Virus record (IMG/VR): IMGVR_UViG_2802429219_000018
DNA from: a virus
Lineage: Duplodnaviria > Heunggongvirae > Uroviricota > Caudoviricetes
Direction: 5' to 3' (one strand)
Length of the DNA: 7,738 nt
Shown: positions 1-7,738 of the stretch, piece by piece
Layout of the letters: the number at the start of each line of letters is the position of its first letter
How positions within the stretch are numbered: the stretch's first letter is position 1
Notes under the pieces: model-generated
Seen by the model: the letters and a program-made list of their open reading frames with translations, nothing else
Databases searched by the model: none
Told to the model about the DNA's origin: nothing
Translations under genes and position numbers: made by a program

Positions 1-63
1 TTTACGCACCTCTTTTCCTAACAAAACGCCAGCCATCTCAAAATTAGAACTAGTGTTAGACAT
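1..63 (-). CDS. possible 5'-partial ORF leaving the window. It starts at the ATG at 63..61 and reads MSNTSSNFEMAGVLLGKEVRK, continuing past position 1.
   Basis: An ATG opens a reading frame on the minus strand that stays open to the window edge. The upstream SD is weak (GAGATAGG) and a TAAAAT -10-like hexamer lies about 20 nt upstream. Only 21 codons are visible, so this is weak. Confidence 0.15.
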   Translation of the reverse strand, partial: MSNTSSNFEMAGVLLGKEVRK

Positions 64-119
64 ATATCCAAGCCTATCTCTTATTTTAAGATACATCTAC
101 TGTCTGGTATTTCAGGGGG

Positions 120-470
120 CCAGCTCAGTCTCAAAACGTGGGCATGTTGTCTCAAAATGCCTGCAAGTTGTCTCATTAAAAACAATAAATATTATTAAAT
201 AACATATAGATATATATTTTTGAGACAACCGAGACAACTGAGACAACCTAAACGATGTATTATGTGAGAGTATTTACAGCCATCAGATAGATTCCCAAAA
301 TTACTTCTATATATATACAGAATGTGGTTGTCTCAGTTGGTTCATTGTCTCAATAGGCAAAATATTGTTAAGTATCAACGCGTTATCAATAATAAGCGAG
401 ACAACCTAGTCAAAAATTGAGACAACTACCCCAAAAAATGAGACAACCACGCTAAGTTAGACGATACCTA
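120..470. repeat. Iteron cluster, read as a crr/ori-like replication origin downstream of the replication gene. Nine perfect and one 7/8 copy of the octamer GAGACAAC (usually TGAGACAAC) occur in both orientations, at minus 146-153, 167-174, 327-334 and 344-351 (7/8), and at plus 222-229, 231-238, 240-247, 398-405, 419-426 and 440-447.
   Basis: Read directly from the sequence. Three copies are tandem at 9-bp spacing (222-247). Three plus-strand copies and two minus-strand copies sit at exactly 21-bp phasing. The cluster flanks AT-rich tracts at 176-220 and 296-320, which could serve as a DNA-unwinding element. The position, immediately 3' of the alpha-like replication gene, matches where P4 carries its crr. 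Confidence 0.7.
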
Positions 471-477
471 TAAAACA

Positions 478-2616
478 CTATTCATCCAGTTCATCATCCA
501 TAAGTAATGCATACGCTCTTAACTGCTTACCGTTCAGATGCTTTATTCTGGGTGTTCTTGTTTGCCACCCTTTACCACTTGAAGGGCGTTTAAGCATATT
601 TGCCCCATGAAGCACACTTGCAGCATGGTTTGCATCAAATCCACTTGCCACCTCGGCTTTAAAAACAGCCGGAAGAACATAAAAAGTTATAGCATCATCA
701 AGGTTTGATTTTCCTTTATTTTTATAACCAGCAAGGTTATGAATACTCATCTGGCTCAATTCATCAAAATCAACAGGTACAAAACGACTAATGCTATTTG
801 CTGTAAGAAATGATGTTGCCTGCTCAATAATCTGCTCGTTTTCCTTATTGCCTGTCCCGAACTCAGCCACCCATACATTAAAAACATGCTGTAACGCATC
901 TCGACACGCTAATGAGTCCCATCCAGTAATATGTTCAGAAAGCAGCATTGCACATTCCATAACTGCAAAACGATCCTTTACTCTATGAACTTGCTCGCCG
1001 TAATGTTGCGGAATAAGAGAATCCCATCGCTCTAACGCTCGTTTATAAGCCTCCTTCGCTTCCTGTTGATGATCTGCAAGCCATCTGATCCACTCACGAC
1101 CCGCCGCGCCATAATTTTCTTTCCATGCTGCTTCCAGTGCCTTCGCATGTTTCTCTCCATTTTCGTATCCATGAAATTCAGTTGGTCGAGATACAGGGAT
1201 ATTCAGTAATCTAACGAGCTGTCCAGCTTTTACTTTGATTCCTGCTCCAGCGAGAAAAGTTTCAATACTTTTCTCTCCTGTACTGATAACAACCGTTTCG
1301 AAATATTTAATTTCACGGTTCCCACCATCAGGACTTCCCTGTAATTTCCCTTTTCCATTAAAAAGAGTATAAGACGACGTAAATACACTTCTGGCACTGG
1401 AAGCCTGCTCTATTTCATCAAGAGCCAATAAACAGTGATTATGTGATTCTGCTTCGTTAGTTATACCCAACGCCGTTCCATACCAGGAAAGCCGTTGTTG
1501 TTTTGGAATTCCATACAGACTTGAGGCAAAATCTTCCGCAGTTGTTTTTCCCGCTGTACTTTGCGCATACAGATGCACACCAAAGCCATCAGCACCAATA
1601 ACACCAATCAGCGGGGCTGCCAGTGACGTAGCAGCCGCCAGCATCTGAAACGGGTTTTTATATGCCAATTTTGCAACATTCTCGCGCCAGCTTTCAGTAG
1701 TTCCTTTTACGCGATAAGCCAGCCTTGAGGCACTTCCTCCGGTAAACATAACTGGGGTTTCAGGCTCACCAATAACATCACCATTTGGCATGATGTAGAT
1801 GCCACCAAACCACCCGGAACGTTGTGTAGCCGTATACTGTAACCCTTTCTGAGCTTCATTCTGTATCCAGTCAGATAGAAGCTCTCTGGCCTTATTTTGT
1901 GTAGTAATTTTTAATCCCCAGTCTTTAAGGCGTGACCATCCCTGAGGGGTTCCAATCATTCCGGCTCTAATACAATGAGTAACCATTTCCCCCCTGAATT
2001 TCCAGCGTAAAGCAATAAACATTGCGTCATTTTCTCTATCAAATCCTTCGCCTAACACTTCCAGAGGTGAGCACATCCATTGACCATGGCGGGTTATCTC
2101 TCCTGAACGTTCAATTTTTGGGGTAACCCAGTACATACCTACTGGATCCGCATTTATACGCAATTCAACGTAAGGCGCCAGTTCATCGCGTGCCTGATTA
2201 CTTGCAGATTGCACAATATCCGTCATCGACACTTCTCCGCTCTCTACCTGTTCACGGATCCGTTGCAAGTAGTCGCGCCAGTTCTCCGGCTCCCGGTCGG
2301 TGATGCCTTTGTATAATTTCGCATCCTGTACGCCAGCCAGCGCCAGCTTTTCAGCAATAGCGTTGATCTGAATTGGCTCCATTTCCCCCGCGATATAAAC
2401 ACGCGCAAAGCGGCGCTCATCGTCAATAATGCGGATATTCGCCAGGTCTGCCAGTTGCTTTGGCCCCAGGTAAACAGGTGGTACGTTATCGCCGTGTTTT
2501 CGTCCTTCGCTTTCAATCCAGTGTTGAGCATGGGAGTAAGCGTCCGTCCCGGCAAAAATGATTACCTCGGTGAATTTATCCTTCGGCTGATATTTTAAAT
2601 TCGGTGCGTTTTTCAC
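478..2616 (-). CDS. P4 alpha-like replication protein of the primase/SF3-helicase family, 712 aa. The N-terminal region is Toprim-like (VIIFAGTDAY). The central NTPase carries Walker A (AQSTAGKTTA) and Walker B (HCLLALDEIEQ). The C-terminal part is a putative origin-binding domain.
   Basis: It is a long uninterrupted ORF. The start is a GTG with a strong SD (GGGAGGT) about 8 nt upstream, and it overlaps the upstream gene's stop as GTGA. Walker motifs are read in the translation. Gene order (small genes, then replication gene, then iterons) matches the P4 left operon followed by crr. I do not see the EGYATA primase motif that I recall from P4 alpha. Confidence 0.9.
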   Translation of the reverse strand: MKNAPNLKYQPKDKFTEVIIFAGTDAYSHAQHWIESEGRKHGDNVPPVYLGPKQLADLANIRIIDDERRFARVYIAGEMEPIQINAIAEKLALAGVQDAKLYKGITDREPENWRDYLQRIREQVESGEVSMTDIVQSASNQARDELAPYVELRINADPVGMYWVTPKIERSGEITRHGQWMCSPLEVLGEGFDRENDAMFIALRWKFRGEMVTHCIRAGMIGTPQGWSRLKDWGLKITTQNKARELLSDWIQNEAQKGLQYTATQRSGWFGGIYIMPNGDVIGEPETPVMFTGGSASRLAYRVKGTTESWRENVAKLAYKNPFQMLAAATSLAAPLIGVIGADGFGVHLYAQSTAGKTTAEDFASSLYGIPKQQRLSWYGTALGITNEAESHNHCLLALDEIEQASSARSVFTSSYTLFNGKGKLQGSPDGGNREIKYFETVVISTGEKSIETFLAGAGIKVKAGQLVRLLNIPVSRPTEFHGYENGEKHAKALEAAWKENYGAAGREWIRWLADHQQEAKEAYKRALERWDSLIPQHYGEQVHRVKDRFAVMECAMLLSEHITGWDSLACRDALQHVFNVWVAEFGTGNKENEQIIEQATSFLTANSISRFVPVDFDELSQMSIHNLAGYKNKGKSNLDDAITFYVLPAVFKAEVASGFDANHAASVLHGANMLKRPSSGKGWQTRTPRIKHLNGKQLRAYALLMDDELDE

Positions 2617-2903
2617 TTCTTACCTCCCGCAACCAACATTGCCCGGATTTTTTTAATATTCGTGGCTGCACGTCTCGCCACCGCCTGTTGTTTGTTTTCC
2701 ACCAGAATAAAATCACGCTCAAACTGACGGCGCGGCATTACGCAGTCATATTCGTAAGCCTCACGGCGGTAGGTGATATTGCCTGGCGTAACGTGACGAA
2801 TAACCACTCGTCCCCCACGTCTGGTGTCGCGGTAAATATCTCCGTGTCTGATTTCAGGCCGAGAGAGACCGCTGGCAGTAAAGCCAGAATTTTTCTTTTT
2901 CAT
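2613..2903 (-). CDS. Hypothetical basic 96-aa protein, translationally coupled to the replication gene. It occupies the position of P4 epsilon/orf151.
   Basis: The ATG is preceded by an AGGAAA SD. Its stop is TGA and overlaps the GTG start of the downstream gene. The overlapping plus-strand ORF at 2604..2948 has no such signals. The C-terminus is lysine/arginine-rich. Confidence 0.6.
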   Translation of the reverse strand: MKKKNSGFTASGLSRPEIRHGDIYRDTRRGGRVVIRHVTPGNITYRREAYEYDCVMPRRQFERDFILVENKQQAVARRAATNIKKIRAMLVAGGKK

Positions 2904-2907
2904 GGTT

Positions 2908-3108
2908 TTATTTTCCTGTCAGCAGTTCCGGTTTTATTCCTGCACTAATACAGAGTTCAGAAAAGCCTTCTGCCGTACTTACAATTTCATTATTTCGCAG
3001 CCGGCATTGTGATTTCACTTTCCCTTTATCCAGGTAAACCAGTATGCGTCCGGTGAAATCCTCTGGCACATTCAGGGTAATTGTCATTGTTGCTGGCTTA
3101 TTACCCAT
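2908..3108 (-). CDS. Hypothetical 66-aa protein. It is a single-module paralog of the adjacent 122-aa protein, with an FTGRILV...G.V...E.F.EL...AGIKP module.
   Basis: Its ATG overlaps the upstream stop by 8 bp (ATGGGTAATAA). The shared motif lines up residue for residue with the first half of the 122-aa protein. Confidence 0.6.
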   Translation of the reverse strand: MGNKPATMTITLNVPEDFTGRILVYLDKGKVKSQCRLRNNEIVSTAEGFSELCISAGIKPELLTGK

Positions 3109-3469
3109 GGTTCACCCCCCCCTGAATGACCTGATAACCGCAACTGGTCAGCAATTCGATAAATTCCGGCAGTGTGCCGAAACAGCAATCATCACGCAGC
3201 CGTTCGCGGGATACCTCGACGCCGTTTTCGTAGTGACTCACCATGCGTCCGGTAAAATGCAGATCATCATCGTGATGGCACGTTAACGGCTTAATCAGTC
3301 GCGCACGTTCCGCCAGTTCCAGCAATGCTTCAACGCTTCCGGCAATTGCACCATCCGGCAGGTGGTAATTACGCACTATGCGCCCGTTCTCCACATTGAC
3401 CAGCAACTGCCCGGTAAATTTCTCGTCAAACTGAATGCTGTTAAGGTCAGAAATTGACAGGTTATGCAT
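3101..3469 (-). CDS. Hypothetical 122-aa protein made of two tandem copies of the ~45-aa FTG module (F18-T19-G20...IKP60 and F72-T73-G74...).
   Basis: Its ATG overlaps the upstream gene's stop (ATGCATAA). The internal duplication is visible in the translation. Confidence 0.65.
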   Translation of the reverse strand: MHNLSISDLNSIQFDEKFTGQLLVNVENGRIVRNYHLPDGAIAGSVEALLELAERARLIKPLTCHHDDDLHFTGRMVSHYENGVEVSRERLRDDCCFGTLPEFIELLTSCGYQVIQGGVNHG

Positions 3470-3665
3470 GGTGCACCTCCTGGCGAATACGGGCAGCGAA
3501 TACCATCACGCAGCCATCAGGAGATTGCTGACGCGCTTCCTGTTCGCTGATGGCCTCGATGTGAATTACGCGCGGTTGTGCCGTACTCAGGGCGATAAAA
3601 CGCCAGATATATTTATTCAGGTTGTGCGAGTCCCGCCCTTGCGGGTGTGTGGTATGATTTCTCAT
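3462..3665 (-). CDS. 67-aa small protein (MRNHTTHPQGRDSHNLNKYIWRF...). It is the first gene after the leftward promoter, the position P4 kil occupies. By recalled family pattern it resembles the Icd-like host cell division inhibitor small proteins of P4-like elements.
   Basis: This is the C-terminal portion of the 331-aa track ORF. The rest of that ORF runs antisense through the operator/promoter region and the RHH gene, so it is not credible as coding. The internal ATG at 3665 has a GAGGT SD 6-7 nt upstream. The family assignment is from memory of similar annotations and is not verified. Confidence 0.55.
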   Translation of the reverse strand: MRNHTTHPQGRDSHNLNKYIWRFIALSTAQPRVIHIEAISEQEARQQSPDGCVMVFAARIRQEVHHA

Positions 3666-3757
3666 AGCTACCTCGATACTGTTGCTATCGTTGGTGGTTA
3701 GAAGCCCGGTTAGTGTTAGCGCACTGCCGGGTTTCGTCGTTTTTATGAATCGATCAT

Positions 3758-3870
3758 TGTGAGATACATAGTCATCACAATGTGAGATATACATTATATT
3801 GTGGTGATATACATTGCAAGTGTTTTTATATCTCACTTTTGTGTATAGTGATATACACATAACTAATTGG
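3758..3870. promoter_or_regulatory. Divergent promoter/operator region carrying five copies of a GTGAGATATACAT-like motif, at 3758-3769, 3781-3794, 3804-3814, 3827-3836 (reverse) and 3848-3860. Candidate leftward promoter: -10 TATAAT at 3798-3793 and -35 TTGCAA at 3819-3814, with a 15-nt spacer. Candidate rightward promoter: -35 TTGTGT at 3839-3844 and -10 ACTAAT at 3862-3867.
   Basis: The repeats are read directly. The promoter hexamers were matched by eye. The spacer is suboptimal on the leftward side and the hexamers are weak on the rightward side. The operators overlap both candidate promoters. Confidence 0.5.
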
Positions 3871-3879
3871 TGATTAACT

Positions 3880-4182
3880 ATGTCTGTATACAAAAATGCA
3901 AAATCGCAAATGACAACGATCAGGGTTCCCCACGATGTTATGGAGGGTATGGAATCCGTAAAACTGGACGGCGAAAGCAACGCCGGATTCATAGTAACCG
4001 CCATGCGTGGTGAGATCGCCCGCCGCCAGGCAGAAGGAAGAGGAGAAAATCCCCTGGTTTCTTCGCTCGATGCACTGGCGCAGGTGGAAAAAATCGGAGT
4101 CAAAGCAGCCGAGGAGATCGGGCAGCTCGTCACCGTCGCGCGTGAAGAACTCCAGCGCCGCAAGGCCAAAGAACAGGAGTAG
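3880..4182 (+). CDS. 100-aa ribbon-helix-helix-like transcriptional regulator, a candidate immunity repressor. The N-terminus reads TTIRVPHDVMEGMESV...NAGFIVTAMRGEIARRQ, a beta-strand followed by two helices. The C-terminal tail is charged and coiled-coil-like.
   Basis: It is the only credible plus-strand gene. A GGTGA SD lies 6 nt before the ATG. The N-terminal pattern matches the Arc/MetJ/CopG RHH fold by eye. The gene sits immediately beside an array of tandem operator repeats, which is typical for RHH repressors. Confidence 0.65.
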   Translation: MSVYKNAKSQMTTIRVPHDVMEGMESVKLDGESNAGFIVTAMRGEIARRQAEGRGENPLVSSLDALAQVEKIGVKAAEEIGQLVTVAREELQRRKAKEQE

Positions 4183-4401
4183 TTGATCAGCACCGGGCAA
4201 CCAGAAAAAATCGTATCAGTCGCGCTACCAGCAAAATTTTTTGCTTTCCGGACAGCGTGGCCAACGGCATTTTGCAGCAAAATATTCTGCATTTCTGGCG
4301 TGCTGTAGTAACGGTGATCAGCGCCTTCACATTGAACGAACTTGTCGCTAAAATTCACCCATATAGCAAACATCGCGGTGCTACAGGTAATTCGTTCACA
4401 A

Positions 4402-4434
4402 AGGCGCTCCGGCAACGGGGCGCTTTCTCTTTTT
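4402..4434 (+). terminator. Intrinsic terminator. Stem GCGCTCCG (4404-4411), loop GCAA, stem CGGGGCGC (4416-4423), then TTTCTCTTTTT.
   Basis: An 8-bp GC-rich stem with one G-U pair, followed by a T-run on the plus strand. On the minus strand the same stem is followed only by CUUUGUG, which would make a weaker terminator for the antirepressor transcript. Confidence 0.55.
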
Positions 4435-4449
4435 GTAACGGTCAGAGCG

Positions 4450-5250
4450 TTACACATGGCTGTTTTCCTCCATGCGACGGGCTAACCAACGCTGCGAAAG
4501 ACGAATTAATTCAGCTTTCCGCTGGTGGTAGTCCTGGCCTAACTCAATCAGCGTGATATTGCTCTGCTCAAGGTAAGAAAGGTGCTCAAGCTGCAATGTG
4601 CTCATGTGGTCGCGTGGTTCGCCTGTGATGTCGTTCGCCTGCGCCCACTGTTTTGCAGTCATGCCACCCAGCACGATACGCGCCAGCATGTTCGCTTCCG
4701 TGGTGTAGTGGTGCTGGAGTGTGTTTTTACCCAGTTCAGCCCGGTACGCCTCCAGCGCGGCACACATTGGCTTAAAGTAGCTGGCAACTGTGATACGGGC
4801 TTTCAGTTCCCGGCGTAACGCTGCGGAACGCACTGGCGCTACCTTGTGTAGCTCCTCCTCGCATTTGATGAAGTACTGACGAACGGCGCGGCCCTGTTCG
4901 GTGCGTTCGACCATCGCCAGTTCTTTCGCCATGTTGATAGTGCTCAGGTAGTCGTGCTCTATACGTTGGCGAGATTTTGCGCTCACCGGATTGGGGGAGG
5001 TCAAATTTTCTACGAATTCAAAATCCACGCCCTTTTTAAATCCGTACTCATCAATGCGTCCTTTAATCCAGGTTGTGAAATCACGGCCTACCCCGAGCGC
5101 CTTATGCAACGCTCTGGCGCTAACAATATTGGTTTCACGCCCGCCAATAACGCCGGAAATAACCGGGATAATTTCGCCAAAATTTTGCAGATTCTGGTTT
5201 TCAGGCCGAACGAAGCCCTGCCCCTGTACGGGCGTTTTTGGAAATTTCAT
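4450..5250 (-). CDS. AntA/AntB-domain phage antirepressor-like protein, 266 aa.
   Basis: The N-terminal half (ARALHKALGVGRDFTTWIKGRIDEYGF...HDYLSTINMAKELAMVERTEQGRAVRQYFIKCEE) matches the AntA/AntB antirepressor N-domain pattern as I recall it. It is a clean ORF with an ATG start. Confidence 0.8.
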   Translation of the reverse strand: MKFPKTPVQGQGFVRPENQNLQNFGEIIPVISGVIGGRETNIVSARALHKALGVGRDFTTWIKGRIDEYGFKKGVDFEFVENLTSPNPVSAKSRQRIEHDYLSTINMAKELAMVERTEQGRAVRQYFIKCEEELHKVAPVRSAALRRELKARITVASYFKPMCAALEAYRAELGKNTLQHHYTTEANMLARIVLGGMTAKQWAQANDITGEPRDHMSTLQLEHLSYLEQSNITLIELGQDYHQRKAELIRLSQRWLARRMEENSHV

Positions 5251-5327
5251 AAAAACTCCTGCTATCGAATTAAGTTACTTTTATTTGCTGGTGGATAGCT
5301 GGGGGCAATAGCCCCGTAGCCATTTAA

Positions 5328-5525
5328 TCAGGTAGCTGTTCCGCGTGATTCCGCAATACGCTGATTAATCCACTCGTCAATTTCACTCTCAACGAAAGCA
5401 ATCGCTCGCGAGCCAATTTTTACAGGTTTAGGAAAACGCCCTTGGGCAATGAGTTTATAGATCCATGCCCTGCCATAGCCTGTACGGCGCATGGTTTCTG
5501 GCATACGAATTAAAGATTGTGACAT
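5328..5525 (-). CDS. AlpA/Vis-family small DNA-binding regulator of the excisionase/transcriptional-regulator type, 65 aa. It uses the internal ATG of the 88-aa track ORF.
   Basis: It carries the family motif RTGYGRAWIYKLIAQGRFPKPVKIGSRAIAFVESEIDEW. The ATG at 5525 has a GGGAGA SD 8 nt upstream. The longer 88-aa form would have to start inside the palindromic operator region. Confidence 0.8.
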   Translation of the reverse strand: MSQSLIRMPETMRRTGYGRAWIYKLIAQGRFPKPVKIGSRAIAFVESEIDEWINQRIAESRGTAT

Positions 5526-5591
5526 GATAATCGTCTCCCGTTGTTTATTGATGCCTACGGGAGACATTGAAGCAGGTAAGACATTGGATAT

Positions 5592-5628
5592 CACCGCAAT
5601 TGCGGTGAATGATACCGCAATTGCGGTA
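5592..5628. promoter_or_regulatory. Two perfect 16-bp palindromes, CACCGCAATTGCGGTG (5592-5607) and TACCGCAATTGCGGTA (5613-5628), 21 bp apart centre to centre. Read as a putative dimeric-regulator operator in the alpA-like promoter region.
   Basis: Read directly from the sequence. They sit 70-100 bp upstream of the AlpA-like start and directly downstream of the stop of the 251-aa gene. Confidence 0.5.
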
Positions 5629-5639
5629 TAGGACTACAA

Positions 5640-6395
5640 CTACGATTTAATTGATTTATTGGCTTCAGCAAACTTTGCTTCCAGCGTTCTTGAACTCATC
5701 CCCGGCTTACCTTCAAAATGTCCCAATAAATTACTAATAATAGAGCTTTGATTTTCGAATACAGATTGCTTAATACCAGCAGGTGAACGCCCTAACATTA
5801 GAAAAAGCAACCCTCCAATAATGTTTAAATATGTTGTTTCAGAACGTTGGTCAATGTTTTGCACGGAGTTATCAACCATTCGTCGTAGTGAATCACGTTC
5901 CCCTTGTAATTCGGAAATTTCATTTTTCTGCTGTTGGAAAGTCTTCATAGCATTATCTAAGCGAATATTAAGACGTTTGTTTTCAGCCTGAAGAGTTTGA
6001 TATGCCTCGACTGTAATTCCAGCATGTAACTGCTGCTCAACAGCATCAAAAAGGAAAGCTGGTTTTTGGTTGGGATAGTTTTTTGACATCCATGATTTCA
6101 GATCGGAATGGCGGACGGTTAAACGGTGCTTAGCAACCTGTTCTCCAGGTTGAACAGTTTTACCATCACGGCCATAAGGAATTTCACAATTATGGATTGC
6201 ATCTAAAATTTTCTCAGCATTAACACGCAAGCAAGGCCATTGAGGGAACATTCCAACGCTAGGTAAAACTCCATCTCCCACTCGCTCCAATATTAAAACT
6301 TCATGAGCAATTAAATTACACCAACGTAGCGCCGCTTCAATTGGAGTGTAATATGCCTTTTCAAGAGAACTACAGCTTTTTGAATTGTAAGTCAC
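5640..6395 (-). CDS. Hypothetical 251-aa cargo protein. It has an N-terminal globular domain, a central coiled-coil-like segment (QTLQAENKRLNIRLDNAMKTFQQQKNEISELQGERDSLRR) and a hydrophobic stretch (YLNIIGGLLFLMLG) that could be a transmembrane or amphipathic helix.
   Basis: It starts on GTG with a GAGGT SD 8 nt upstream and has no internal ATG nearby. The gene is visibly AT-richer than the flanking int and alpA-side genes. Confidence 0.7.
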   Translation of the reverse strand: MTYNSKSCSSLEKAYYTPIEAALRWCNLIAHEVLILERVGDGVLPSVGMFPQWPCLRVNAEKILDAIHNCEIPYGRDGKTVQPGEQVAKHRLTVRHSDLKSWMSKNYPNQKPAFLFDAVEQQLHAGITVEAYQTLQAENKRLNIRLDNAMKTFQQQKNEISELQGERDSLRRMVDNSVQNIDQRSETTYLNIIGGLLFLMLGRSPAGIKQSVFENQSSIISNLLGHFEGKPGMSSRTLEAKFAEANKSIKS

Positions 6396-6523
6396 TCTGT
6401 GCTACCTCGCACCCTCTGTAAAAGTGGCTGTGCCAGCCCGCAGAGGTGTACGGGTTTTCAGGAGCGACCCTAGACACAGCCTTTTCTTAATCGCTCAAAG
6501 TCTACTACTGTATACTCAACCAG

Positions 6524-7738
6524 TCACCCGCATTTTCCGAACTCACCATGCACCACATTTCCGCCATGCTCGAGCGAATCCATATAATCGGCGTACCACT
6601 GAAGCATTTCCCGCCGTCCATCCAGATATTGCGCATGGTTGTATGTGCCACGAATTGAGTTTTTATCGACGTGTGCGAGCTGCGTCTCTATCCATGCGGT
6701 GTTATAGCCCTGCTCATGCAAAATGGTGCTCATGGTGTGCCGGAATCCATGACCAGTAACCTTTCCGTTATAGCCGATGCGTTTAAATACTTGGTTTATG
6801 CTAGCCTCGCTCATTGTTTTCCTTGGATCATTACGGCCGGGAAACATAAGCGGATAATTGCCAGTTAATTCTTTAATCTGCCCAATAAGAGAAAGAGCCT
6901 GCTTAGACAAAGGCACCACATGAGGGCGACGCATTTTCATCCGTGAAGCAGGTATCTCCCAGATAGCCTTGTTGAGATCGATTTCATCCCATAATGCACC
7001 GCGCAGTTCGCCAGTTCGCAAACCAGTGATAATCAGTAGACGAGCCGCCATAACAACCAATGCACTTCCTGAGTAACTGGACAATGCCTTGAAAAAATCA
7101 GGCAATTCTTTGGCTGTGAGGAAAGGATAATGATTAGATTCATGGCCTTGCATCGCGCTAGTAAGATCTGGGGCAGGGTTATACTCTGCGCGACCAGTGA
7201 CTATTGCATAGCGGAAAACTTCCCCACACCGCTGCCTCACTTTTTTGGCTTTTTCTGTAGCACCGCGCCCCTCGATGCGTCGCAGCACATTCAGAAGTTC
7301 AAGTGGTTTGATTTCGGCGATTGGTTTTTTGCCAATGTAAGGGAACACATCTTTGTTGAAGGCTTCGAGGATGTCTGAAGCATAACCAGCAGACCATTTT
7401 TTTAATTTGCTGCTGTGCCACTCAAGGGCAATATCTTTGAAGGTGTTGTTTAACTGCGTTTCCCGGGCAATCTTTTCCTCTCGTTTCGCTTCCATCGGAT
7501 CGATACCCCCAGCGATACCCCTTTTAGCTTCTTCACGTTTTGCACGAGCATCAGCCAAGGTAACTTCAGGATACACACCTAGTGCTAACAGCTTCTCTTT
7601 ACCAGCTACACGATACTTGAAGCGCCAATATTTTCCTCCACTAGGTTTTACCAAGAGATACAGACCACCACCATCAGCCAGCTTGTAAGCCTTCTCTTTT
7701 GGCTTGGCAGTGTCTATTTGACGGGCATTGAGTTTCAC
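6524..7738 (-). CDS. int: P4-family tyrosine integrase. The start lies at or just beyond the right window edge.
   Basis: The N-terminal domain (KLNARQIDTAKPKEKAYKLADGGGLYLLVKPSGGKYWRFKYR) matches the P4-integrase arm-binding pattern. The C-terminus has HGFRHT (H-x-x-R) and GTYNHAQYL, which carries the tyrosine nucleophile. The first codon in the window is a GTG at 7738..7736. Confidence 0.9.
   Translation of the reverse strand: MKLNARQIDTAKPKEKAYKLADGGGLYLLVKPSGGKYWRFKYRVAGKEKLLALGVYPEVTLADARAKREEAKRGIAGGIDPMEAKREEKIARETQLNNTFKDIALEWHSSKLKKWSAGYASDILEAFNKDVFPYIGKKPIAEIKPLELLNVLRRIEGRGATEKAKKVRQRCGEVFRYAIVTGRAEYNPAPDLTSAMQGHESNHYPFLTAKELPDFFKALSSYSGSALVVMAARLLIITGLRTGELRGALWDEIDLNKAIWEIPASRMKMRRPHVVPLSKQALSLIGQIKELTGNYPLMFPGRNDPRKTMSEASINQVFKRIGYNGKVTGHGFRHTMSTILHEQGYNTAWIETQLAHVDKNSIRGTYNHAQYLDGRREMLQWYADYMDSLEHGGNVVHGEFGKCG

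Follow-up and report, generated by a model that had tools for sequence, protein, structure and literature searches.

The DNA analysed here is a stretch of 7,738 bp (the window) from the IMG/VR virus record IMGVR_UViG_2802429219_000018, assigned to the Caudoviricetes. All of its genes lie on the minus strand and, by their Pfam calls, follow one another in one direction in the order int, alpA, antA, icd-like, DUF4222 and pri-rep, the last of which encodes a 712-aa initiator-helicase that we refer to as Rep. Between the stop codon of pri-rep and the terminal fragment of an insertion sequence (IS) lies an array of short direct and inverted repeats, and it is this array, considered as a candidate replication origin (ori) of a phage-inducible chromosomal island (PICI), that concerns us here. 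The features of the window are collected in Table 1.

The iteron array and its truncated edge

The repeat cluster is genuine and very far from random. Nine mismatch-free copies of the octamer GAGACAAC are present in the window, all within 146-447 (starting at 146, 167 and 327 on the minus strand and at 222, 231, 240, 398, 419 and 440 on the plus strand) and nowhere else, against a chance mean of 0.14 copies; not one of 200 dinucleotide-preserving shuffles reached nine. A near-exact copy with one mismatch, GAGACAAT, occupies 344-351 on the minus strand, and the only other one-mismatch matches in the window are two lone sites within genes. Since a T precedes eight of the ten octamer copies, the repeat unit is TGAGACAAC. 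Wedged between the copies at 327 and 344 is a variant twelfth site, GTTGGTTCA at 336-344, which reads TGAACCAAC on the minus strand. The tally for this copy of the array is thus nine exact sites, one near-exact site and one variant, with the outermost site cut by the IS. The octamer reaches a density of 25.7 per kb in the array compared with 0.016 per kb in 631 kb of other enterobacterial loci. There is a single cluster: all nine exact window copies lie together, the window search found no copy, exact or with one mismatch, in the int-alpA interval, and an intact relative (L001, from E. coli STEC346) has 10 of the 11 copies in its 21 kb within the array.

Counting the cut copy and the variant site, the intact design comprises 12 sites in four trios. 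Judged from the coordinates, the array has dyad symmetry centred on position 287, each half holding iterons that read outwards from an AT-rich core. The outer trios (125/146/167 on the minus strand and 398/419/440 on the plus strand) are phased at 21 bp and the inner trios are tandem, the steps from 222 to 231 to 240 being 9 bp each. The two cores are 94% (175-221) and 72% (352-397) A+T; the whole window averages 54%. The intergenic DNA is occupied throughout by the array, whose last copy stops 30 bp short of the rep stop codon. Relatives that use this octamer share a unit made up of three tandem copies at 9 bp, an AT-rich core of 45-55 bp and then copies in the opposite orientation at 11 and 21 bp. 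The variant at 336-344 belongs to what is the commonest iteron class in the wider Rep family, TGAACCAAC, and here it sits in the middle of a trio of GAGACAAC sites; a similarly mixed trio is found in a Scandinavium relative (L014), and the corresponding trio in a Lelliottia relative (L011) consists of three exact GAGACAAC copies. The site may be left over from an earlier specificity or may be a variant that is tolerated.

Much of this had been proposed in the initial annotation, whose ten octamer copies around two AT-rich tracts (nine exact and one with a mismatch, as it turns out), 21-bp and 9-bp spacings, local octamer enrichment and single cluster, with none in the int-alpA interval, were all borne out by the counts above. 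Its interval of 120-470 was right for the array and wrong at the left edge, where 120-127 belong to the IS3-family end and not to the origin; the stump of an eleventh copy and the variant twelfth site are additions to it.

Other signals in and around the array are few. There are no DnaA boxes (allowing up to one mismatch) and no GATC sites in 64-477, so nothing indicates a DnaA-dependent origin, and the same interval holds one match only to the IHF consensus (373-385). The array region has no open reading frame (ORF) support, and an RNA gene was rejected when an Rfam scan of 1-700 gave chance-level matches only (E near 1). A literature search for GAGACAAC returned primer sequences only, and the supplement of PMC6092414 is without iteron sequences.

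Table 1. Features of the window, listed from the IS junction and array through pri-rep to the integrase gene.
Feature	Position	Strand	Remarks
Terminal 127 bp of IS3-family insertion sequence	1-127	-	transposase orfA starts at 63; outside the origin, sets its truncated edge
Candidate island replication origin (ori), intergenic iteron array	128-477	.	between rep stop codon (478-480) and IS junction; distal edge truncated at 128
Stump of outermost iteron, cut between GTT and GTCTCAAAA	128-136	-	IS-cut third member of outer trio 125/146/167
Two exact iterons (146-153, 167-174), 21 bp apart	146-174	-	reading away from AT core A
AT core A, 47 bp, 94% A+T	175-221	.	oppositely oriented iteron sets on both sides; candidate duplex-opening site
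Inner trio, exact tandem iterons at 222, 231, 240, 9-bp spacing	222-247	+	
Central spacer, 79 bp, A+T 64-79%	248-326	.	dyad centre ~287; TATATATATA run at 306-317
Second inner trio, 8-9-bp spacing	327-351	-	exact GAGACAAC 327-334, TGAACCAAC-type variant 336-344, GAGACAAT 344-351
AT core B, 46 bp, 72% A+T	352-397	.	one IHF consensus match, 373-385
Outer trio, exact iterons at 398, 419, 440, 21-bp phasing	398-447	+	
pri-rep, 712-aa DUF927 initiator-helicase (Rep)	478-2616	-	N-terminal 128-aa PICI module, predicted DUF927 MCM-like ATPase, C-terminal domain
Predicted iteron-reading C-terminal domain, Rep residues 600-712	481-819	-	residues 686-688 = bases 553-561
DUF4222 protein	2613-2903	-	
Two small ORFs		-	between icd-like ORF and DUF4222 in gene list
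331-aa ORF, Icd-like C-terminus	3462-4457	-	
AntA-domain protein (antA)		-	after alpA in gene list
AlpA	5328-5594	-	
251-aa ORF		-	between int and alpA in gene list
Tyrosine integrase (int)	6524-7738	-	

The left edge of the array is explained by the IS. Window positions 64-129 match about 1000 E. coli genomes in up to 26 places per genome, as well as plasmids, and one annotated instance of the match is immediately outside a transposase gene of the IS3 family that carries a programmed frameshift. The multi-copy matches and the adjoining transposase gene identify bases 1-127 as an IS end (terminal sequence ...CTGTCTGGTATTTCAGGGGGCCAGCTCA) and the ORF starting at 63 as its transposase. The sole phage match to the window, in phage PhiR41_1, is to this IS end. 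Homology with two uninterrupted relatives, L001 and L007 (E. coli RM9088), starts exactly at 128. In both of these the third leftward iteron reads GTTGTCTCAAAA, whereas only GTCTCAAAA is left of it in the window; the counterpart iterons in L001 lie intact at 7998, 8019 and 8040, and the intact STEC346 origin (NZ_CP091044.1 2714851-2715253) measures 403 bp. The IS is therefore inserted within the outermost iteron, between GTT and GTCTC, and has removed half of that site. The rest of the island lies past the IS, outside the window.

The island and its Rep protein

Bases 2233-7738 are 93-97% identical to islands that adjoin the tRNA-Thr gene by proA in many E. coli strains, and 93.5% identical to the island of E. 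coli 55989, which is listed as a PICI in the supplement of Fillol-Salom et al. (2018; PMC6092414). The prototype EcCICFT073 shares the gene order (int, alpA, icd-like, ..., DUF4222 and pri-rep, followed by 288 bp of intergenic DNA and then by accessory and capsid genes). Because of this gene order and its homology to recognised PICIs, the element is best classified, by sequence comparison, as a Gram-negative PICI and not as a P4-type satellite. In EcCICFT073 the pri-rep-ori segment keeps plasmids maintained in a rep- and ori-dependent manner, and deleting the ori region lowered maintenance (PMC6092414). A later survey places the ori downstream of pri and counts DUF927 proteins among the PICI primases (PMC10111431).

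This allele is rare: of 5426 complete E. coli genomes, 4 have the origin. The 350 bp of the origin position (128-477) are 99.7% identical in E. coli RM9088, where they follow the same rep allele. No complete E. coli genome contains the window from end to end, and the ori and rep module has no match in either the plasmid collection or the phage collection that we searched.

Rep carries a DUF927 domain (Pfam, E 7.9e-45), and its residues 231-607 match the Rep of the Staphylococcus aureus pathogenicity island (SaPI) SaPIbov1 (chain 8tch_A, phmmer E 9.2e-12). The AlphaFold model of the full-length protein has a mean pLDDT of 79 and is good up to residue 606; its best Foldseek matches are SCCmec Cch (5dgk, E 4e-20), SaPIbov1 Rep (8tch, E 1.6e-17) and the SaPI5 primase-helicase (7ola). 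From profile and model together, the core is predicted to be an MCM-like AAA+ helicase homologous to SaPIbov1 Rep and Cch. The C-terminal domain is modelled at low confidence and has no significant fold or profile match that would confirm a winged helix. The rep ORF has its full length, with 99-100% identity to its counterparts in intact elements.

The first 128 residues of Rep (window 2233-2616) form a separate module with an alpha/beta fold and no Pfam match. This module is 91% identical to that of the L004 Rep, which has an SF3 D5_N/DUF5906 helicase, and 50% identical to that of the EcCICFT073 Pri-Rep. A breakpoint in DNA homology near 2230 coincides with a disordered linker in the model (residues 128-142). 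The shared N-terminal module and this breakpoint suggest that the 3' part of rep and the origin move jointly as a cassette, from 128 to about 2230. In many Rep relatives from other genera a P4-alpha-like Zn-ribbon and Toprim primase replaces the N-terminal module, and the 128-aa module itself may be primase-related or may recruit the host primase.

Elsewhere in the island, the 331-aa ORF at 3462-4457 matches an Icd-like cell-division-inhibitor model at residues 283-326 only. The Icd-like proteins of related islands are 60-135 aa long, and the homologous region there also has YlcI/YnfO genes on the opposite strand; the long ORF could reflect a fusion or a rearrangement, or it could have been called too long.

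Iterons and Rep C-termini across relatives

We surveyed the 600 bp after the rep stop in 80 loci encoding Rep relatives, one genome per species (L008-L087), and detected iterons by counting exact 7-mers and 8-mers. In about 65 of the 80, a 7-mer is enriched within this interval, with 5-13 exact copies (4 in a few loci), and over the other ~7 kb of the locus the same 7-mers number 0-5, usually 0-1. Exceptions with more copies in the remainder are L024 (16) and L075 (5), both of which have interrupted rep reading frames. Among the roughly 85 relatives examined in all, an iteron cluster is clear in about 70, beginning 22-30 bp past the rep stop. Six loci (L016, L018, L042, L065, L068 and L079) show no clear cluster within 600 bp of the stop, their top 7- or 8-mer being present at most 3-4 times. 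Origins at clusterless loci may be degraded or displaced, or their repeats may be too degenerate for exact k-mer counting.

The repeat follows the Rep allele. E. coli PICIs that share the rest of the island have a different repeat for each Rep allele at the same intergenic position: GAGACAAC in 10-11 copies with the window allele (the window, L001 and L007), CGGGATAT/C in 12-14 copies with another DUF927 allele, of 48% identity (L002 and L003), and GGTAGACA(G) in 7-10 copies with D5_N/DUF5906 Reps (L004, L005 and EcCICFT073). The commonest iteron class among the 80 relatives is TGAACCAAC. The TGAGACAAC class is represented by seven loci, from Lelliottia, Scandinavium, Shimwellia, Kosakonia, Enterobacter and another Enterobacterales bacterium, and further classes are GGGACAAC, TGGGATAAG, CGGGATAA, TGAACCACG, TGAACCGA, TAACCCAC, TAACCCGT, ACCGACAA and TAGTCCAA. 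The Rep family has at least nine or ten iteron specificities across the Enterobacterales. An extra class, CGTAACG in L081 (Xenorhabdus khoisanae), was rejected: at 119-169 after the rep stop this locus has a (CGTAA)n microsatellite of about 10 units within a normal GGGATAA-type origin.

The number of sites per origin is bimodal over 78 loci, with six in 16 and twelve in 28. Six-site origins span about 110 bp and consist of three tandem copies, an AT core and three phased copies. The preference for six or twelve points to a hexamer or double hexamer with one site for each subunit.

Sites and protein also appear to change together. The strongest evidence is a pair of origins, from L022 and L034 (1-340 after the rep stop), that are positionally identical: both have twelve sites, placed at matching coordinates, and all twelve TGAACCAAC sites of L034 are TGAGACAAC or a close variant in L022, a two-base change made twelve times over. 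The two Reps are 88% identical over the helicase core and differ in a C-terminal hairpin, QRKSPRIDG versus QGRV-REDG (in context, GYQRKSPRIDGRQ versus GYQGRV-REDGRQ). This looks like a concerted specificity switch. Across about 570 aligned Rep columns, residues are disjoint between the GAGACAAC class (n=10) and the TGAACCAAC class (n=36) only at 686, 687, 688, 694 and 708, all within the last 27 residues of Rep; R687 is invariant in the former class and K in the latter, and the window Rep has T686, R687 and T688. At matched core identity, Rep pairs with the same iteron have the closer C-terminal domains (for example, 0.67 versus 0.43 in the 0.55-0.65 bin). Co-variation would thus place the specificity determinants of Rep within residues 686-708. 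Such C-terminal localisation together with a concerted rewrite of the sites is what a cognate protein-site pair predicts, and it is hard to explain for repeats that have no partner.

A candidate PICI origin and its place among known systems

Taken together, these observations make it very probable that 128-477 serves a Gram-negative PICI as its replication origin, and that the DUF927 Rep encoded next to it reads it with its C-terminus. The reading draws on the position of the array after rep, the PICI identity of the element, the allele-specific iterons, their concerted change, the C-terminal co-variation and the homology of Rep to SaPI Reps. SaPI origins have six to twelve iterons, which are divided equally between the two sides of an AT-rich region and point in opposite directions (PMC9371898, summarising Ubeda et al., 2007, 2012). 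In the account given there, a C-terminal winged helix of the SaPI Reps recognises the iterons, binding and melting are ATP-independent, and one hexamer is probably loaded per side (PMC9371898). We propose the same mechanism here by analogy, with six sites per hexamer. The 712-aa island Rep, as a hexameric MCM-like DUF927 helicase, would recognise the 8-9-bp iteron TGAGACAAC through its extreme C-terminal domain, and the 21-bp phasing would put the sites of an outer trio on one face of the helix. Rep bound to the inverted sets could then distort and open the AT-rich segment and load itself as a helicase, probably with one hexamer on each six-site half, as proposed for the SaPI Reps.

Several points weigh against the origin reading. 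We observe the repeats, where they lie, how they are conserved and how they co-vary with the C-terminus of Rep; from these we infer origin function, Rep binding, melting and Rep-dependent replication. The validated E. coli PICI replicon, EcCICFT073, has a helicase of another family (SF3, D5_N/DUF5906), and the transfer of function to the DUF927 allele is therefore indirect. Some 10-15 of the 80 relatives are without a clear iteron cluster or have only 3-4 copies, and the co-variation statistics ignore phylogeny. Finally, the IS insertion may have impaired this particular copy of the origin.

The best of the competing explanations, though itself improbable, is that the array serves mainly as a transcriptional operator or copy-control ('handcuffing') site for rep or for the downstream operon. 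Plasmid iteron arrays often serve both in replication and in copy control or as operators. In intact relatives the next gene begins only about 50 bp past the outer trio, and the region contains five weak sigma-70-like matches where 2.4 are expected. However, there is no terminator-like site between rep and the array on the coding strand, and an operator role leaves the AT cores and the 6/12 design unexplained, whereas inverted sets around a 94% A+T core, six or twelve sites and strict placement after rep in about 70 loci are traits of SaPI and PICI origins. The lowered plasmid maintenance seen on deleting the equivalent EcCICFT073 region (PMC6092414) also argues for replication. The two roles could coexist, as they are not mutually exclusive.

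We consider it somewhat less probable again that the array is an origin by descent and dead in this copy, a relic left when the IS3-family insertion at 127/128 took away one site and cut the array off from the island's downstream half. The IS end does abut the array and cut an iteron, the whole window recurs in none of the complete E. coli genomes, and the unusual length of the icd-like ORF (331 aa versus 60-135 aa in relatives) hints at other rearrangements. Against this, 10 of the 12 sites match the octamer with at most one mismatch and the TGAACCAAC-type variant makes an eleventh, neither AT core is damaged, the region retains its 99.7% identity to uninterrupted relatives and rep its full length and 99-100% identity to intact elements, and many relatives have six sites only.

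As a finding this is ordinary, annotating a single PICI origin and reclassifying the element from P4-like to PICI. Its wider value is modest and comparative. More tentatively, we raise the possibility, which we do not rate as likely, that the DUF927 satellite Reps of the Enterobacterales share a rewritable recognition code. A C-terminal hairpin (residues ~684-695, e.g. Q-x-R-T/V versus Q-R-K-S) might read the two central bases of TGA-NN-CAAC, such that a few residue changes and a concerted rewrite of six or twelve sites would switch specificity and keep co-resident satellites from cross-replicating, and the 6/12 rule would follow from each C-terminal domain of a hexamer or double hexamer occupying its own site. 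The comparison provides a testable set of candidate specificity-determining residues (686-688, 694 and 708), the concerted twelve-site rewrite and the 6/12 site rule, and with them a means of foreseeing which satellites might replicate one another or prove incompatible, which was the practical question raised by the initial annotation.

The comparison with P4 had been the starting point. Least probable of all is a P4-type crr/ori served by a P4 alpha-family primase-helicase, because, although P4 crr is closely analogous in layout (46 bp 3' of alpha, with ten octamer iterons in both orientations) and the Zn-ribbon and Toprim primase at the N-terminus of many Rep relatives is P4-alpha-like, Rep has no detectable sequence similarity to P4 alpha (BLASTP E=0.5), GAGACAAC does not occur in P4 and the window cluster is built on it rather than on TGTTCACC (for which the window was not searched directly), P4 requires two separated sites (ori and crr) where the window and its intact relative each have one cluster, and none of the P4 hallmark genes (sid, delta, psu) turned up either in the window or in L001, the annotated intact relative, the genes present being those of an E. 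coli PICI. What the two systems share is a set of octamer iterons in both orientations directly 3' of the gene for a multifunctional initiator-helicase. The C-terminal domain of P4 alpha reads the P4 iterons. The proteins nevertheless differ in their domains, P4 alpha having Zn_Ribbon_Prim, Toprim_3, D5_N, DUF5906 and Pox_D5 and the window Rep the 128-aa module and DUF927. The P4 record holds 11 exact copies of TGTTCACC among 16 annotated type-1 repeats, which agrees with the P4 iteron given in the initial annotation and its difference from the window octamer. It places crr directly 3' of alpha and ori between ORF88 (vis) and sid, and not in the int-alpA interval as had been supposed. Thus the likeness to the crr layout stood, while iteron, initiator family and two-site organisation differ; likewise the proposal of an origin read by the C-terminus of an adjacent alpha-type protein is upheld as to position, architecture, comparative behaviour and C-terminal co-variation, but not as to alpha-like descent. 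The region resembles P4 crr/ori in outline and is not a member of the P4 system.

Closer affinities lie elsewhere. SCCmec Cch (PDB 5DGK), a DUF927-family protein, is the best structural match to the modelled Rep, and to our knowledge no equivalent iteron origin adjoins cch. The SaPIs (SaPIbov1 Rep, PDB 8TCH; SaPI1 and SaPI5) share with the island a homologous Rep ATPase core, an origin directly after rep, 6-12 iterons with the halves in opposite directions around an AT-rich region and, as we predict for the window Rep, a C-terminal domain that sets specificity. They differ in having iterons of 5-6 bp as against 8-9 bp here, and the island for its part has a Gram-negative host, an extra N-terminal Rep module, two AT cores and a dyad layout of four trios. 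Nearest of all are EcCICFT073 and the other E. coli PICIs, which are the same in element type, in gene order, in having the ori directly 3' of pri-rep, in their short iteron sets in both orientations around AT-rich DNA and in the 128-aa Pri-Rep module. Where EcCICFT073 differs is in the reading pair, an SF3 helicase (D5_N/DUF5906/Pox_D5) with GGTAGACA as opposed to a DUF927 MCM-like protein with GAGACAAC. The element is neither of a new kind nor P4-like by descent, and we regard its array as a new or rare specificity variant, perhaps already depicted in Fig. 2a of PMC6092414, of a well-described type of origin.

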